This document shows, one piece after another, positions 14,805 to 19,707 of a DNA stretch of 20,000 nt; the first letter of the stretch is position 1; every line of letters starts with the position of its first letter. Origin of the DNA: an uncultured virus (IMG/VR IMGVR_UViG_3300006735_000024) (Duplodnaviria; Heunggongvirae; Uroviricota; Caudoviricetes); the IMG/VR virus record IMGVR_UViG_3300006735_000024; one strand, 5' to 3'. Position numbers and translations under genes: made by a program. Below the pieces are notes generated by a model. It was not told where the DNA came from. It saw only the letters and a list, made by a program, of their open reading frames with translations, and did not search any database.

Positions 14805-16760
14805 ATGCTCAATAGAGGTAGAAGCAATTCGAGAAAGAATAAAAAGAGTAAGGTTTCCATACTAGGAGAAGGAACCTTTCTCGGATTGCAATTTGCTCAA
14901 TACCTAGAAGAATTAAAAGACTCTTCTGAAGTTGTAACATTAAATCCAACAATAACCTTTGTTGGGAACACTGTGATATTTGATTATAGTCGTGTTACAA
15001 ATAAAGATGACATTGACGAAATCAGAGTATTCTTTGAAAGCACTGTGTCTAGCGGAGATACCTTAACAGTCACAGGAGGAGAATATACAAATCCTCTCAG
15101 TGGTGATTCAAAAGTATATGACATCGGCGGAACATACACGTTTGATAAGTTTGATTCAAACAACTTTCTTATCTTTCTTACAAAGAGTTCCATAAACAAT
15201 GAAAGTCAAACGTACAGCAAGTACGATCAAAGATATTTTCTCAACGATAGCATTCAATGGACAACGGAAGTTGTAACCACAAATAAAATAGAAATCAATG
15301 AAGTGGTGAATATATTCGGAAGTGACTCATTGAATTCTTTTTCACGAGTCTTGGGAGAAGAACCCCAAGAGAATGATATTCTAGAAATCCAAGCAGACAA
15401 AGCAACCATAAGCACATTTAAAGTTCTTGGTTTCTATATCGACGAAGAAAGAGGCGAACACATAGTTGTGGAGGAAGAACTTCCCAATCATGGAACAACC
15501 AAAGTAGGACAGGAAATTTTTGTTAGGTTGTCCCGAGTAGAAAGCACCCAGAGTGTCACAACAACCACAACTCCTGCACCAGAAGAAGAACCACCCCCAT
15601 CAGCAGAAACACAAGATAGTCCTTTCGCACTACCTCAACCACCAGAGCGAGCAGAAGCAACTCCTTCTCCGCCCGTCCAACCAAGAACAATACAAAACTC
15701 TGCACCAACTACAAACATAACTACGGTTCCTCCAAGAACTTTAGAAGACGAAGCATATTCTAAATGGCAAAATTCTGGTAGAATAACTTATAATGTTACT
15801 GTGAAAAGACAAAGAACCGATCAAGGTTTCTATAAGAATGTTTTCTTCATTGACGGTGAACCAAATAAAACTATAAGTCTCCCTCCCGGAACTTGGGTAA
15901 GATTTAAACAGAGCGATAAGAGTAACACTAGTTCAGGCTATTCAAATACAAATCATCCATTTAAGATATCACTTACTCCTGATGGAATTCATGATGGAGG
16001 AGCGGAAAGAATAAATGGTGTTGTTCAGAAGGGCATTTTAGGAAGAACCAGAACTCCTTATACCTACGTTCAAATTGGTACTCAGGACTTATTTTATTAT
16101 TGTGCAAACCATCCGGGAATGGGTGGTAAAATTGAAGTTGCTATTGAAGAAAGAAGTTCTGTTCCCGAATGTTCAGGACAGTGTTATTCAAAGAGAATAG
16201 ATGAACTGTGCTGGGCTCCAGTACCGACAGGATGTAACGGAAGATGTGGTGGAAAGAATTTAGATGAAGATTCAGGATTTGAATATGCATGTATCTCTCC
16301 GTATGATCCACCACCTGAATGTATGCAGTACAATACACAATTTCCGTGTCTTCAACGTGGACCCATTGCATTGGATATTCCGTGTACTTCTGATATTTGC
16401 GGAAATGAAGACTCCAAAAGGTGTGCTGGTAGGGAAACTTGCATTAAATATAGAATAATCAATGCTTGTCCAGATTTGGACATTGATGGTTGGTTTGGTG
16501 TTACAGAATGTTGTTGTGGGATCGATTCCACCGACTCAGTAAGTTCTGTTAGTACTAACATCCTAAGCACACCCACACCCACACTCTCCCCGATTACTAC
16601 AACTCCTGAACCAAGAATGAACATGACAACTCCCGCACCCACCACAACTCCCGCACCCACCACAACTCCTGCACCGAGAAGAATAACAACTCCCGCACCA
16701 ACAACACCACCACCAAGTATGCCTAGTAGTGGAGGTGGTGGATATAGTTCTGGTTACTAA
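14805..16760 (+). CDS. Multidomain putative virion protein with cupredoxin-like domain, Cys-rich domain and Pro/Thr linkers
   Basis: HPFKIS...LFYYCANHPGMGGKIEV motif; PT-rich linkers; GGGGYSSGY C-terminus. Confidence 0.8.
   Translation: MLNRGRSNSRKNKKSKVSILGEGTFLGLQFAQYLEELKDSSEVVTLNPTITFVGNTVIFDYSRVTNKDDIDEIRVFFESTVSSGDTLTVTGGEYTNPLSGDSKVYDIGGTYTFDKFDSNNFLIFLTKSSINNESQTYSKYDQRYFLNDSIQWTTEVVTTNKIEINEVVNIFGSDSLNSFSRVLGEEPQENDILEIQADKATISTFKVLGFYIDEERGEHIVVEEELPNHGTTKVGQEIFVRLSRVESTQSVTTTTTPAPEEEPPPSAETQDSPFALPQPPERAEATPSPPVQPRTIQNSAPTTNITTVPPRTLEDEAYSKWQNSGRITYNVTVKRQRTDQGFYKNVFFIDGEPNKTISLPPGTWVRFKQSDKSNTSSGYSNTNHPFKISLTPDGIHDGGAERINGVVQKGILGRTRTPYTYVQIGTQDLFYYCANHPGMGGKIEVAIEERSSVPECSGQCYSKRIDELCWAPVPTGCNGRCGGKNLDEDSGFEYACISPYDPPPECMQYNTQFPCLQRGPIALDIPCTSDICGNEDSKRCAGRETCIKYRIINACPDLDIDGWFGVTECCCGIDSTDSVSSVSTNILSTPTPTLSPITTTPEPRMNMTTPAPTTTPAPTTTPAPRRITTPAPTTPPPSMPSSGGGGYSSGY
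16626..16706 (+). repeat. 18-bp coding tandem repeat (TTPAPT)
   Basis: ACAACTCCCGCACCCACC occurs twice exactly (16626-16661), with two degenerate copies at 16662 and 16686. Confidence 0.9.
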
Positions 16761-16835
16761 TAGACTCGGCGGGAGTCGAACCCACGACCAGGCGCTTATA
16801 AGGCACCCACTCTTACCACACTGAGTTACGAGTCA
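16761..16835 (-). tRNA. tRNA-Ile(UAU)
   Basis: Cloverleaf with D-stem ACTC/GAGT, anticodon arm GGTGC-CTTATAA-GCGCC, T-arm GTGGG-TTCGACT-CCCGC, acceptor GACTCG/CGAGTC and a U1:U72 mismatch. No encoded CCA. Confidence 0.88.
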
Positions 16836-16836
16836 A

Positions 16837-16910
16837 TACGAGCGGTGGGACTCGAACCCACACTGGACGGATTTTAAGTCCGTTGCCTCTGCCGATTGGG
16901 CTACGCTCGC
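16837..16910 (-). tRNA. tRNA-Leu(UAA), short variable loop
   Basis: Acceptor GCGAGCG/CGCTCGT, anticodon arm ACGGA-CTTAAAA-TCCGT, T-arm GTGGG-TTCGAGT-CCCAC, A73. Confidence 0.9.
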
Positions 16911-17227
16911 TCTCTTAGTCTCTTATGGAATTGTTCTTTGGTTTCAAAGAATGGAACATCACCCATGAGTATTTTCTTCACATGAAAAATCTCAATCGCA
17001 GTACATATAAAACAAATAACAACTGCAATAATGGCTAGATACTTTGGGAATCCAATAATCAAGTCAAGAACAATCAAAAACGCTGCACAAAAGTTCTGTG
17101 CTGTAATCATACCCAACATGGTTTGTCCAAACTGTGCCTTTGATTCATTAGACAAATCATAAATTGTACTGCAAGCAAACTTATAGCACGCATAAACTAC
17201 CAAAGGAATACAAATTATTGCAAACAT
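16901..17227 (-). CDS. Small membrane protein (about 3 hydrophobic segments)
   Basis: Hydrophobic stretches; AGGA upstream; stop codon lies inside the 5' end of tRNA-Leu. Confidence 0.65.
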   Translation of the reverse strand: MFAIICIPLVVYACYKFACSTIYDLSNESKAQFGQTMLGMITAQNFCAAFLIVLDLIIGFPKYLAIIAVVICFICTAIEIFHVKKILMGDVPFFETKEQFHKRLRERA

Positions 17228-17229
17228 GC

Positions 17230-17412
17230 TCAGTCCTGTAGGAAATTACCGTTGGGTGCTTCGTCAAGAAGAAGTTTTGCGACCTGTTCGTTGTTTACCC
17301 AATTAGAGGAACCATCCTCACATGTCACACGAATCTTATCCTCATTCACTTCAGATATTACCCCCTGCTTCAGTGATTCTTTAATTACTACCTTTTCTCC
17401 AACATCATACAT
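17230..17412 (-). CDS. Small hypothetical protein, possibly SH3/KOW-like barrel
   Basis: YDVGEKVVIK....GVISEV....IRVT.EDG...WV pattern; AAGGAG RBS; overlaps the upstream gene end. Confidence 0.7.
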   Translation of the reverse strand: MYDVGEKVVIKESLKQGVISEVNEDKIRVTCEDGSSNWVNNEQVAKLLLDEAPNGNFLQD

Positions 17413-17788
17413 TATTGGTCTCCTTTATATTAACCATTCCTGTGTTAGTAGTATACCATATATCATCGAACAATGCAAGACACCATTTCAAACAATTGCA
17501 ACATGGTTTACTCATTCGCATATCACCAAAACGATTGAACCTGTAATTGAACAATTTAAGATTATCCTTTGGTCCTTTATAACGCAAGAGTGCATCCAAT
17601 TCTGAATGCACCTCGTCAAACCTGTAACCCAATTCCTTCGCCTTCGGATGAGTCCGAAAATTATTCGTACCAATTGCAACAACTTCATTCTTACGAACGA
17701 TAATCGATACATGTTTCTTGGGACGAGTAATTGATAGCGCCGTGGGAAGTGCAATGTCGGTTAGTTTTTTAAGTTTCACGGGAGTCAT
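17405..17788 (-). CDS. Zn-dependent cytidine/dCMP-deaminase-like protein
   Basis: HSE and PCCNC Zn-binding motifs, plus N-terminal HVSIIV.KNEVVAIGTN. Start moved to ATG 17788 because the track start lies inside tRNA-Arg. Confidence 0.85.
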   Translation of the reverse strand: MTPVKLKKLTDIALPTALSITRPKKHVSIIVRKNEVVAIGTNNFRTHPKAKELGYRFDEVHSELDALLRYKGPKDNLKLFNYRFNRFGDMRMSKPCCNCLKWCLALFDDIWYTTNTGMVNIKETNNV

Positions 17789-17794
17789 TATAAA

Positions 17795-17868
17795 CACGCC
17801 TGGATGGACTCGAACCATCAACTTGCGGCTTAGAAGGCCGCTACTCTATCCAATTGAGTTACAGGCGC
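17795..17868 (-). tRNA. tRNA-Arg(UCU)
   Basis: Acceptor GCGCCTG/CAGGCGT, anticodon arm GCGGC-CTTCTAA-GCCGC, T-arm GATGG-TTCGAGT-CCATC, G73. Confidence 0.95.
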
Positions 17869-17874
17869 TCTGTG

Positions 17875-18006
17875 TCACCTGAGTTTCTTACCGTTTCCTC
17901 TTCGAGAAGTTTTCGAGGGTGCGTTACCCTTTCTCTTCTTTGAAACGCGAGGAGAACCTACCTTAATTCGAGTTGATGTCGCAGGATCATGATTTTTATT
18001 TGACAT
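17875..18006 (-). CDS. Small highly basic protein (43 aa)
   Basis: Not in the track. MSNKNHDPATSTRIKVGSPRVSKKRKGNAPSKTSRRGNGKKLR; GAGGT RBS; fills the gap between the Sm-like gene and tRNA-Arg. Confidence 0.7.
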   Translation of the reverse strand: MSNKNHDPATSTRIKVGSPRVSKKRKGNAPSKTSRRGNGKKLR

Positions 18007-18017
18007 TATATTTTACC

Positions 18018-18329
18018 TCACGTTGTAAGTTTAAGACCAGCACCGGAGATAGGTCCCTTCTCGGGAACTACGATACCAGAACCGAATGAAGAACTATACT
18101 GGTTTACCAGTTCAGTCATTGGTGGGATTACAAACACAACATACTTCTTGTTGATTTCAATTCCATTTTCAATATCCGCATATGGCAACCACTGTCCAAA
18201 TGCAAGTTGATCTCTACCAGCAGGAATGAGAATAGCGGGATTCTTCAATGTATAACTATCATCATTCTCTGTTACCTTGGCAACAATTTCTTCACCAGTA
18301 CTCAATCTAACAATTTGTGTTTCACTCAT
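18018..18329 (-). CDS. Conserved T4-like phage protein, predicted Sm/Lsm-like fold
   Basis: IVRLSTGEEIVAKV...LKNP...WLPY...VVF..P..ELVNQY...FGSGIVVP is typical of this phage family. The fold assignment is from recall. Confidence 0.7.
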   Translation of the reverse strand: MSETQIVRLSTGEEIVAKVTENDDSYTLKNPAILIPAGRDQLAFGQWLPYADIENGIEINKKYVVFVIPPMTELVNQYSSSFGSGIVVPEKGPISGAGLKLTT

Positions 18330-18463
18330 TTTTTAGTATCCTTTTTCTTTTCTTTGGGTTTAGTTTTTTTGTTTTTTCCGAATGCAGATTCCCAACCTGC
18401 ATCGTATTTCTTTTGATCTACGGGTCTATATCTACCACCCTTTCCTGCTTGCCCATCAACCAT
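18326..18463 (-). CDS. Small basic hypothetical protein (45 aa)
   Basis: MVDGQAGKGGRYRPVDQKKYDAGWESAFGK..., with a GKG..RP....Y...W...F pattern seen in small phage proteins. GAGG RBS; ATGA overlap with the next gene. Confidence 0.7.
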   Translation of the reverse strand: MVDGQAGKGGRYRPVDQKKYDAGWESAFGKNKKTKPKEKKKDTKK

Positions 18464-18662
18464 CTTCACATTCCTCTTGTACATTTTCGCACACCGTAAC
18501 ACTTCCCGGTAAAGAATTGATCCAGTCGTTTGCGGCAGAAATATCATCCAGTACTTGGTTGCATGTGCATCGATCCGCAGGAGTGCAAATTAAGTCACAA
18601 CTTTCATATGTAAGTTTTGCCTTCAATCCACGAATTACACTTTCATTTGGTTCTATACTCAT
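18456..18662 (-). CDS. Small Cys-containing hypothetical protein (68 aa)
   Basis: Start at MSIEPNES with AAGGAG RBS and an upstream CATACATA late-type box. Confidence 0.65.
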   Translation of the reverse strand: MSIEPNESVIRGLKAKLTYESCDLICTPADRCTCNQVLDDISAANDWINSLPGSVTVCENVQEECEDG

Positions 18663-18715
18663 AATGTTCTCCTTGTACATAAGTATTCTACTATATGTAT
18701 GGTGCAATTGCAAAT

Positions 18716-18767
18716 AAAAAAAGGGACGGTAAGGAATCTTTTTTATAAAGACTCAACCTACCGTCCC
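18716..18767 (-). terminator. Long-stem intrinsic terminator
   Basis: Minus strand: GGGACGGTAGG..GAGTCTTT-loop-AAAGATTC-CTTACCGTCCC followed by T7. Confidence 0.8.
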
Positions 18768-18769
18768 TC

Positions 18770-18980
18770 TGGAAATCATGGACGGGAAGGATTAACATTT
18801 ACCTTCAACTTTCGGGGTCATCTAGTTGATTATTCCCTACTCGCACTACGCTTGAGTCAGTTAAACTCTGCTACACTCATTTGAGCATTCACACCCCACT
18901 ACAGGGAACCGCATACATTATTTCCAATAACAAAAAACATTCTGTCACCGTCCTATGCGGGAGTAATTAATTCCCACATA
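18770..18980 (-). ncRNA. Candidate structured ncRNA (multi-stem, two putative pseudoknots), family unknown
   Basis: No credible ORF; at least 8 manually identified helices; flanked by a boxA-like site and a terminator. Confidence 0.7.
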
Positions 18981-19028
18981 TCTTTATTCAATTGTCAAAG
19001 CACCGGCGAGGCGGTTAAGCCCCGCCGG
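18973..19028 (-). promoter_or_regulatory. rrn-like antitermination leader (boxB hairpin, boxA, boxC)
   Basis: CCGGCGGGGC/GCCTCGCCGG hairpin, then TGCTTTGACAATT, then TATGTGGG. Confidence 0.55.
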
Positions 19029-19036
19029 GCATAATC

Positions 19037-19145
19037 GATTTTAGTTAGTACTCTCTACAGCACTTGCAGATTCAACAGGATACAAAACGAGCCTGCATAA
19101 TATAATCCACTCCATTCGATTGACACCACTCAATCAACTAAAATC
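19037..19145 (-). ncRNA. Candidate multi-branch structured RNA element
   Basis: A perfect 10-bp closing stem GATTTTAGTT/AACTAAAATC encloses three hairpins. Confidence 0.5.
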
Positions 19146-19164
19146 ATGGTAGGTAAGACTCGGA

Positions 19165-19422
19165 TCAGCAGAGTCCTGCACGGATCGCATGTGGGTTATC
19201 AGTGTAACCGTTGAAATCCATTCCGTAGGAAGTCTTACCACTGGGGGTATCATTGGTGGTAACGCTCCAGTTACCGTATGCTTCAACCTGTGACTTGATG
19301 TTGCTCATGGTTGCACGCATGTTACCGACACCGAATCGGCTCTTTGCTTGTGAAGCAGTAAGGGTGTTGCCCTTGGCAAGATAATCCATTACTCGACGCT
19401 TCTTTGAAACTGTGTTGCTCAT
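19165..19422 (-). CDS. Small winged-HTH-like DNA-binding protein
   Basis: KKRRVMDYLAKGNTLTASQAKSRFGVGNMRATMSNIK pattern (HTH_39-like); AGGAG RBS. Confidence 0.75.
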   Translation of the reverse strand: MSNTVSKKRRVMDYLAKGNTLTASQAKSRFGVGNMRATMSNIKSQVEAYGNWSVTTNDTPSGKTSYGMDFNGYTDNPHAIRAGLC

Positions 19423-19514
19423 AATTATGAACTCCTAAAAACTAATGCGACTCTAAGTAAGAAAGGGTTAGATACTCGTCGCAGTCGTATCCGTTCCCTG
19501 ATTGTTATACTAAT

Positions 19515-19543
19515 AGTATACTCTATACTATTCTAATTGTCAA
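19515..19543 (-). promoter_or_regulatory. Strong sigma70-type (early) promoter
   Basis: TTGACA-17 nt-TATACT upstream of the HTH gene. Confidence 0.85.
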
Positions 19544-19634
19544 TCCTTTTACTGGATAAAATCATTCTTTTTTCTGCCTCTTCTTCGTGTGTTTAAATGT
19601 GGTCAAACTTTAGACCACATAAATTGGCAATCAA

Positions 19635-19707
19635 TGAGTCAGGCGGGACTCGAACCCGCGACGAACGGTTTAAAAGACCGCTACTCTACCAACTGAGTTA
19701 CTGACCC
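19635..19707 (-). tRNA. tRNA-Lys(UUU)
   Basis: Acceptor GGGTCAG/CTGACTC, anticodon arm GCGGT-CTTTTAA-ACCGT, T-arm GCGGG-TTCGAGT-CCCGC, A73. Confidence 0.95.

Follow-up and report, generated by a model that had tools for sequence, protein, structure and literature searches.

A divergent manA RNA in the tRNA region of a marine T4-like myovirus

The manA motif was first described as a riboswitch candidate from marine metagenomes and T4-like cyanophages (Weinberg et al. 2010, PMC2864571) and has remained an orphan for sixteen years. RNA-only cages made in vitro are the subject of a 2026 preprint, which reports pentamers, decamers and a 60-mer cage of manA RNAs by cryo-electron microscopy and describes L5-L7' and L8-L9' as intermolecular kissing loops (10.64898/2026.07.01.735769). 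Here we analyze a stretch of 20,000 nucleotides (nt) from an uncultured virus (IMG/VR record IMGVR_UViG_3300006735_000024), called the window throughout, whose minus strand carries a compact, highly structured RNA at 18776-18979, within the phage tRNA region. A preliminary description of this DNA, made from its letters only, had proposed a non-coding RNA of this kind, which our results support, but had taken it for an unrecognised class with two pseudoknots. Our best explanation, to which we give a probability of about 80%, is a divergent manA RNA of a marine T4-like myovirus that is free-standing, acts in trans and would assemble with itself by loop-loop pairing.

A default Rfam scan, which applies the gathering threshold, reports four tRNAs in the window and no manA. 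When matches are reported by E-value instead, cmscan places the manA model (RF01745) at 18776-18978 on the minus strand, over model positions 1-192 of 192, at a score of 51.7 bits; E is 3.9e-12 when 1 kb is scanned and 7.8e-11 for the whole window. This is 3.5 bits under the curated cut-off of 55.2 bits, which is why the default scan overlooked it. Across the whole window no family besides tRNA and manA is found at E 0.01, and to E 0.1 the scan returns the four tRNAs, manA and two weak matches elsewhere that are probably due to chance. The preliminary description had held that a strong Rfam match would overturn the novelty of the RNA and nothing else, and it is indeed the novelty alone that has to be given up. 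We also submitted to cmscan 15 relatives that are 84-96% identical or belong to the same subgroup. Nine of them pass the cut-off, at 57.6-65.5 bits (L410 65.5, L065 65.3, L346 64.7, L381 64.0, L380 62.4, L404 59.7, L344 59.4, L359 58.7 and L250 57.6), and the other six fall just under it (52.3-54.3 bits). Canonical manA RNAs of viral contigs reach 155 and 177 bits, and 100.6 bits are reported for the manA RNA of cyanophage S-CREM1 (PMC9964418). The signature strings of the subgroup were not found in the 2010 manA alignment, where gap characters could conceal a match. Judged by sequence comparison, the window RNA and its relatives are thus a divergent manA subgroup that straddles the Rfam threshold.

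Pattern scans, three on viral contigs and one on metagenome contigs, were used to collect homologues and yielded 75 complete loci with the subgroup motif, corresponding to 50 distinct sequences. Excluded from the alignment were six loci cut by contig ends and the chance matches L353 and L355 (dropped after inspection, before counting); the resulting alignment, A4, has 48 distinct rows from viral and marine metagenome contigs. As GTGACNGAA and AATGCTCAAATGAG were fixed in the search patterns, both blocks are invariant by construction. Another 17 loci from the first scan share the window's spacing (35 bases) and were rejected as chance hits, cmscan having found no manA match in them. One metagenome contig (L350, 12.1 kb) carries a motif and a downstream terminator identical to those of the window; it possibly derives from the same or a very close genome and is therefore not counted as independent support.

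Covariation in the 48 homologues is stronger evidence for the fold than folding energy. The 271 nt that include the downstream terminator fold with -89.4 kcal/mol (z -6.15, 0 of 200 shuffles as good), and the 203-nt motif alone reaches a z of only -2.30 (2 of 200 shuffles as good). On A4, a manA-like model containing the full helix set in manA order (12 helices and sub-helices, with P3 weak and P6 lying in a search pattern) has 94.2% of its cells paired and double changes in 25 pairs, and its covariation score is 0.341; shuffled controls score 0.160 (0 of 500 as high) and slid partners 0.063-0.095. The pairing scheme of the preliminary description has 90.7% of its cells paired, 16 pairs changed on both sides and a score of 0.210. 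Thirteen of these 16 pairs are in helices common to both models, and three are in its TGGAAAT/ATTTCCA pseudoknot. The registers of P5 and P8 were picked after viewing the alignment, which biases the comparison somewhat toward the manA-like model; an all-against-all column scan, noisy from the kinship of the sequences, was used only for choosing registers. Taken together, the stretch 18776-18979 on the minus strand is a real, intricately folded RNA, and its architecture is that of manA: P1, the closing helix P2, the P3 arm, P4 enclosing P5 to P7, and then P8 and P9.

The 5' hairpin P1 (AUGUGGGA/UCCCGCAU, 18955-18979; all helices are on the minus strand), which the preliminary description had drawn as ATGTGGGA/TCCCGCAT, is borne out by changes on both sides in seven of its eight pairs. 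The closing helix P2 was likewise drawn correctly: GGACGG (18948-18953) pairs with CCGUCC (18780-18785) in 100% of cells, two of the six pairs change on both sides, and GGAC/GUCC becomes GAGC/GCUC in 5 of 48 sequences. P2 corresponds to the [[[[[ ]]]]] helix of the Rfam model, and conservation stops about 3 nt beyond its 3' strand, after CCGUCCA. Between P2 and P4 lies J2/3 with the P3 arm (18915-18947, GUGAC-GAAU ... AAUAAUGU), aligned to GUGaCUGAAUAA ... UAAgGu of the family. Its weak U-rich hairpin (18931-18936/18921-18926) has 88.9% of its cells paired and a single double-changed pair (9 cells); an alternative hairpin drawn earlier for this region has 0 double changes. The earlier pairing GTGACAGAA/TTTTGTTAT is ambiguous on the 48 homologues.

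The junction helix P4 (18847-18913, with 18907-18913 pairing 18847-18853) encloses P5, P6 and P7; it is 94.9% paired, five of its seven pairs change on both sides, and the window has a G-G mismatch at 18909/18851. P5 (18894-18906, CCC/GGG with the loop L5, U GUAGU G) is 100% paired with two of three pairs double-changed, and competes with two elements of the earlier scheme, the TTCCCTGT/GTAGGGAA helix (0 double changes, 46 unpaired cells) and the GGGGT/ACCCC pseudoknot (0 double changes, 22 unpaired cells). The bases of these elements covary elsewhere, CCC 18904-18906 with GGG 18894-18896 and GGG 18835-18837 with CCC 18814-18816. For example, C18906 covaries with G18894 (C-G 40, U-G 5, U-A 3), and the same G18894 would be unpaired in 10 sequences if placed in the GGGGT pseudoknot. 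P6 (18873-18888, (AU)GCUC-AAAU-GAGU(GU)) has four invariant inner base pairs (bp); these are part of the metagenome search pattern, so that the constancy of this core, proposed earlier as ATGCTC/GAGTGT, is by construction, and the two pairs outside it fail to form in 7 and 9 of the 48 sequences. P7 (18854-18868, GAGU/ACUC with the loop L7, UUAACUG) is 100% paired with two of four pairs double-changed (two of five when drawn as GAGTT/GACTC, as it was originally).

P8 (18814-18837) consists of an outer helix, GGG (18835-18837) with CCC (18814-18816), and an inner hairpin, AUC-AACUA-GAU (18820-18830), which carries L8. In the outer helix G18836 and G18835 covary with C18815 and C18816 (G-C 43, A-U 5; and G-C 32, A-U 14, U-A 2) and are unpaired in none of the sequences, whereas with the partners assigned earlier they are unpaired in 5 and 16. 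The inner hairpin covaries as AUC/GAU, ACC/GGU and AUGC/GCGU, with gaps introduced by MAFFT depressing the count to 70.3%, and takes the place of a TCAACT/AGTTGA hairpin, for which we found 0 double changes. The last helix, P9 (18786-18806, GAAGG/CCUUC with the 11-nt loop L9, UAAAUGUUAAU), agrees with the hairpin drawn before; it is 100% paired, and two of its five pairs have 23 and 18 double-changed cells. Besides the helices, the conserved blocks of manA (GUGaCUGAAUAA, UAAgGu, GUGGUG, ACCA, ugCC and GGUA..AAUCC) have equivalents at the aligned places of the window, namely GUGACAGAAU, UAAUGU, GUAGUG, AACU, UGACCCC and GGUAAAUGUUAAUCC, of which GUAGUG and AACU depart from the manA consensus by one compensatory pair.

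The 2010 manA alignment contains two additional pairing lines (Weinberg et al. 2010, PMC2864571). Mapped on the structure line of that alignment, SS_cons_1 joins UGGU of L5 to ACCA of L7, and SS_cons_2 joins CUGU of L8 to ACAG of L9. The family is therefore indeed drawn with two loop-loop pairings, and the claim of a doubly pseudoknotted RNA holds to this extent, but the partners are L5-L7 and L8-L9 rather than those named in the preliminary description. In the window the first pairing is present as UAGU/ACUG, between L7 (18858-18861) and L5 (18898-18901). Over A4 its four pairs are paired in 192 of 192 cells; the middle pair is A-U in 34 sequences, G-C in 11 and G-U in 3, amounting to 11 double changes from A-U to G-C. 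For L8-L9, holding the register fixed gives 56.1% pairing. Measured without regard to register over 28 distinct loop pairs, the longest complementary run has a mean of 3.54, compared with 3.01 when partners are shuffled (0 of 2000 reach it) and 3.12 when letters are shuffled (7 of 1000 reach it). Covariation looks alike for pairing within a molecule and between identical molecules, and thus does not separate intra- from intermolecular contacts.

A third loop shows a feature that is a new detail of the window's subgroup. L1, the 9-nt loop of P1 (18963-18971), contains the self-complementary hexamer UAAUUA (18964-18969) in the layout AU-UAAUUA-C; the other allele is AG-UCAUGA-G. Loop positions 3-8 are self-complementary in 48 of 48 homologues. 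The UCAUGA allele occurs in 8 of 48 and involves a coupled A-to-C and U-to-G exchange, with 0 half changes. On a tree built without P1 the alleles changed at least 5 times, 4 of these changes being forced by supported branches, and L380 and L399 are identical outside P1 and differ in their L1 allele; it is possible that such swaps arose by module exchange through recombination. As the axis of the palindrome is offset from that of the hairpin, and its central pair would join adjacent bases, the hexamer cannot pair within L1. The simplest reading is that it would pair between two molecules.

The RNA is non-coding. Its sense frames are open in 0 of 48 homologues and an antisense frame in at most 3 of 48, in line with the earlier view that there is no credible open reading frame (ORF) here; of 74 insertion or deletion runs among the homologues, 73 are 1 nt long. 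On the minus strand about 450 nt are without a credible ORF, flanked by an 85-aa ORF (19165-19422) and a 68-aa ORF (ATG at 18662). Baseplate wedge, tail tube, head closure and gp32 proteins are encoded in the window, which belongs to a marine T4-like myovirus. Cyanophages are the nearest relatives in culture, and the gp32 of the window has at most 55.6% identity to theirs (P-TIM40, S-SCSM1 and others). Four tRNA genes (Ile, Leu, Arg and Lys) lie at 16760-19707 on the same strand as the RNA, which is placed between tRNA-Lys (19635-19707) and tRNA-Arg (17795-17868); two ORFs and terminator-like hairpins intervene. Among the relatives, a tRNA is found inside about 400-600 nt on either side in 9 of 48 loci; tRNAs stand further downstream of the RNA in L047, L065, L356, L371 and L392, and in L352, L370 and L396 tRNA-Lys ends about 23 nt upstream of P1. 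A distant-mode blastn search of 18700-19010 against a phage collection gave zero matches, and the nearest record (G001, an 18.5-kb fragment) contains no manA candidate; both results are uninformative on absence.

Downstream, 12 nt past P2, begins an intrinsic terminator (18716-18767, minus strand), made up of a 45-nt hairpin (GGGACGGUAGG...CCUUACCGUCCC, 18723-18767) and seven U (18716-18722). RNAfold gives the hairpin -25.8 kcal/mol, with TTTTTTT directly after it (computed on L350, which is identical to the window here); a consensus terminator scanner did not list the 18716-18767 hairpin. Homologous terminators in other lineages combine a conserved top (GUUGAGUC...GAUUCC) with freely covarying lower stems, which indicates that the terminator itself is a conserved part of the unit. 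By a strict rule, which misses several hairpins with an interrupted U-tract, 15 of 51 distinct downstream contexts have a terminator, that of the window included; 17 contexts have a second structured RNA, and the rest vary or are cut. Past the terminator of the window follow a promoter-like site (TTGCAA-17-TAGAAT, 18713-18685), a Shine-Dalgarno-like AAGGAG and the 68-aa ORF. The RNA is hence not in the 5' untranslated region of that ORF; such a position characterises how the family is annotated and not its structure.

On the upstream side a GC-rich hairpin (CCGGCGGGGC ... GCCUCGCCGG) followed by UGCUUU (19003-19028, minus strand, read from the sequence) is likely the terminator of the 85-aa ORF, and an equivalent hairpin with a T-run is present in most relatives. 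Between this hairpin and P1 lies a conserved box (TTGACAATTGAATAA, 18984-18998, minus strand), a candidate promoter element or 5' leader. In the form (T)GACAAGTGAATAA or (T)TGACAAGTGAATAA it precedes P1 by 6-12 nt in nearly all lineages, as a rule just past the hairpin and T-run, and TGAATAA with its left neighbour is conserved in nearly all upstream contexts. In L344, L379 and L380 a sigma-70-like promoter stands immediately upstream of the box. Within the box, TTGACA (18993-18998) was rejected as a -35 element, since no -10 element at 16-18 bp survives P1 covariation, and TGAATAA was rejected as a sigma-70 -10 element because it is too near P1. Pairing of the box with the P3 loop or the 3' tail was sought by eye; the box is invariant and hence offers no covariation to read.

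Where the window has its terminator, sister lineages have a second structured element, which is conserved and about 105-155 nt in length. We found it at 17 distinct loci (L344:292-402(-), L364:672-782(+), L380:297-403(-), L250:473-582(-), L065:575-690(+) and 12 more), and its core has 0 matches in the window. CGUUCC/GGAACG forms its closing helix; one of its hairpins is variable, another, AGUGAG-UGGCC-CUCACU, covaries, and GAUGAUGUAAGAUUCAUUAGGA is invariant. In the RNAalifold prediction compensatory changes are seen in 10 of 25 pairs. Nine of the loci were scanned and gave no Rfam match to E 0.5, so this element may be an undescribed RNA motif. In another relative ARAGORN calls a permuted transfer-messenger RNA (L289:791-1118 (-), tag ANDMRIAA*) directly upstream of a manA-type RNA, a call that may be false. 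Elsewhere in the window itself, a 651-aa ORF (14805-16760 (+)), which stops at the tRNA-Ile gene of the opposite strand, encodes a long tail rich in Pro and Thr as well as a Cys-rich region; a PHROG search with it gave no match.

Contigs from RNA libraries (4 runs, 3 studies) cover 18779-18957, that is, the conserved core only. Their loose ends run into the downstream elements of relatives, which shows that they come from relatives and not from the window genome; they demonstrate that the core of relatives is present in RNA libraries, nothing more. A single contig of run X1 has sequencing-adapter sequence abutting 18784, a position within the 3' strand of P2; this may hint at an RNA end. In run X4 one contig is fused at 18834 to the P1 hairpin of a relative, from 1 nt ahead of P1 onward, and resumes at 18957; this could be an assembly or template-switch artefact, or a hint of a 5' end at P1.

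Membership in manA rests on the model match, the architecture, the signatures and L5-L7, and among the manA features compared the window RNA departs in two, the curated cut-off and the annotated 5' position. As far as can be inferred, it works like canonical manA. Its place between terminator-like hairpins in the tRNA region argues for a free-standing, probably self-assembling RNA and not for a riboswitch; likewise, the unconserved downstream context and the promoter-like site of the next gene speak against a switch for a conserved downstream gene. We propose that a discrete RNA of about 200-265 nt would be made from the tRNA region, that it would act in trans rather than switch a downstream gene and that, by analogy with the manA cages, it may build closed homo-oligomers through intermolecular L5-L7, a weak L8-L9 and, in this subgroup, the L1 hexamer. 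Several points weigh against our best explanation as a whole. The window lies below the gathering cut-off and scores only about one third of canonical manA RNAs (51.7 versus 155-177 bits). P6 and P8 are remodelled and the covariance model misaligns P8, and the L8-L9 complementarity of the window is AAC/GUU, 3 bp only. L1 has two alleles only and could instead be a protein-binding site. The evidence for oligomerisation was obtained in vitro, with other members of the family, and comes from a preprint (10.64898/2026.07.01.735769), while the RNA-library contigs reveal no ends, strand or level, with DNA carry-over possible. Moreover, the conserved upstream box has no sigma-70 spacing, leaving the promoter of the RNA unassignable, and in the window's lineage CCGUCC (18780-18785) can pair with GGACGG (18761-18766) of the terminator in the manner of a riboswitch platform.

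Among the alternatives, the one that survives best, though we consider it unlikely, is that tRNA-processing enzymes cut the RNA out of the tRNA-cluster transcript, as a stable by-product or a processing element with no need for self-assembly. The T4 tRNA region yields small stable RNAs, and our RNA shares the strand of tRNA-Lys and tRNA-Arg and lies between them. The short distance from tRNA-Lys to P1 in three relatives (L352, L370 and L396) suits such processing; in the window, however, two ORFs and terminator-like hairpins separate the RNA from the tRNAs. The adapter at 18784 and the join of 18834 to P1 hint weakly at ends close to the borders of the motif, yet the conserved loop-loop complementarities and the palindromic L1 would be left unexplained. 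Processing of this kind is compatible with a free-standing manA RNA that assembles with itself, and the two do not exclude each other.

Slightly less probable again is a cis-acting riboswitch, in which a ligand stabilises P2, frees GGACGG of the terminator from CCGUCC and so causes termination before the 68-aa ORF. In the paper that introduced it, manA is rated as certain to be an RNA, certain to be cis-regulatory and likely to be a riboswitch (Weinberg et al. 2010, PMC2864571). In the window the 3' strand of P2, CCGUCC (18780-18785), is perfectly complementary to GGACGG (18761-18766) at the start of the terminator's 5' arm, and because both helices share this strand, P2 and the 6-bp antiterminator would be mutually exclusive. 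However, this complementarity is confined to the window's terminator lineage (the window and L350, L351, L361, L393, and L369 with one G-U), and the lower stems of other lineages (GGGUAGUGAG, GAGGGAGACAAG, GAGGUAGGGGCAAG) differ and covary without complementarity to CCGUCC. The six pairs would also have to compete with the 45-nt hairpin of -25.8 kcal/mol, the 68-aa ORF has a promoter-like site of its own past the terminator, and what lies downstream is not conserved, being a terminator, the second RNA or tRNAs. The manA literature found also reports no ligand for any manA RNA.

By far the least credible is a new class of RNA with the doubly pseudoknotted topology first proposed: every arm exists on the minus strand as described (8 of 8 strings with coordinates and 12 of 12 further arms), the default Rfam scan is silent at the locus and the minimum-free-energy fold of the 271 nt includes TGGAAAT/ATTTCCA, but as a nested helix, and against this stand the full-length manA match at E 3.9e-12, three scheme-specific helices without compensatory change, whose bases covary with other partners, and a fourth, this same TGGAAAT/ATTTCCA pseudoknot, that is 56.7% paired and has its 3' partner beyond the conserved motif, where conservation has stopped.

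To return to the self-assembling manA RNA, it can be extended to a wider picture that we offer tentatively and hold to be possible rather than probable: in infected cells the subgroup might form closed RNA-only particles through three sets of loop-loop contacts, with L1 on a two-fold axis giving a different quaternary form, and sister lineages might co-transcribe the second structured RNA. The class of the RNA is already known, and as an annotation the locus is ordinary, a known family just under threshold; what is new, to a moderate degree, is in the detail, namely the subgroup, the palindromic L1 and the terminator-bounded unit. A subgroup partly missed by the default Rfam cut-off widens the manA family, and one that is bracketed by terminators and keeps the kissing-loop complementarities provides natural variation for testing the cage contacts. 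The UAAUUA/UCAUGA swap in L1 makes a direct prediction: dimerisation should be lost when the palindrome is broken and regained when it is restored.

Compared with manA as described in 2010 (RF01745; Genome Biol 11:R31, PMC2864571), the window RNA has the same nine-helix order and the same closing helix, and shares the signatures GUGAC-GAAU/UAAUGU, AUG(A)CCC in P8 and GGUA...AAUCC in P9. The habitat is also the same, marine T4-like phages and metagenomes, near tRNAs. L5-L7 is kept, as UGGU/ACCA in the family and UAGU/ACUG in the window, the two being linked by covariation from A-U to G-C. Differences concern the P6 loop, AAAU in the window and a variable hairpin, often with a GNRA loop, in canonical manA; P8, whose outer helix has only 3 bp, is preceded by a 15-nt insert and has a shortened inner hairpin; L8-L9, whose complementarity is down to 3 bp; and L1, 9 nt with a 6-nt palindrome in place of the GACG/GAUC loops of the 2010 alignment. 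The two kissing loops of the manA cages, L5-L7' and L8-L9', are those that show conserved complementarity here, although the cages were obtained in vitro from other members of the family, with RNA at mg/mL and 10 mM Mg2+ (10.64898/2026.07.01.735769). The main text of that preprint has 0 occurrences of 'palindrom' and does not mention a palindromic L1. Another orphan structured RNA of the same phages and waters, wcaG (RF01761), is often clustered with manA but has a different fold, and no match to it was found in the window to E 0.1. GOLLD and ROOL are likewise phage-borne, tRNA-adjacent RNAs of unknown function for which homo-oligomeric assemblies have been reported, and they are several times longer than the window RNA. 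For L1 the closest parallel comes from an unrelated molecule. The loop of the HIV-1 dimerisation initiation site has 9 nt, arranged as 2 nt, a 6-nt palindrome and 1 nt, and its alternative palindromes stay self-complementary. L1 has the same 2 + 6 + 1 layout, and by this analogy it may likewise serve dimerisation.

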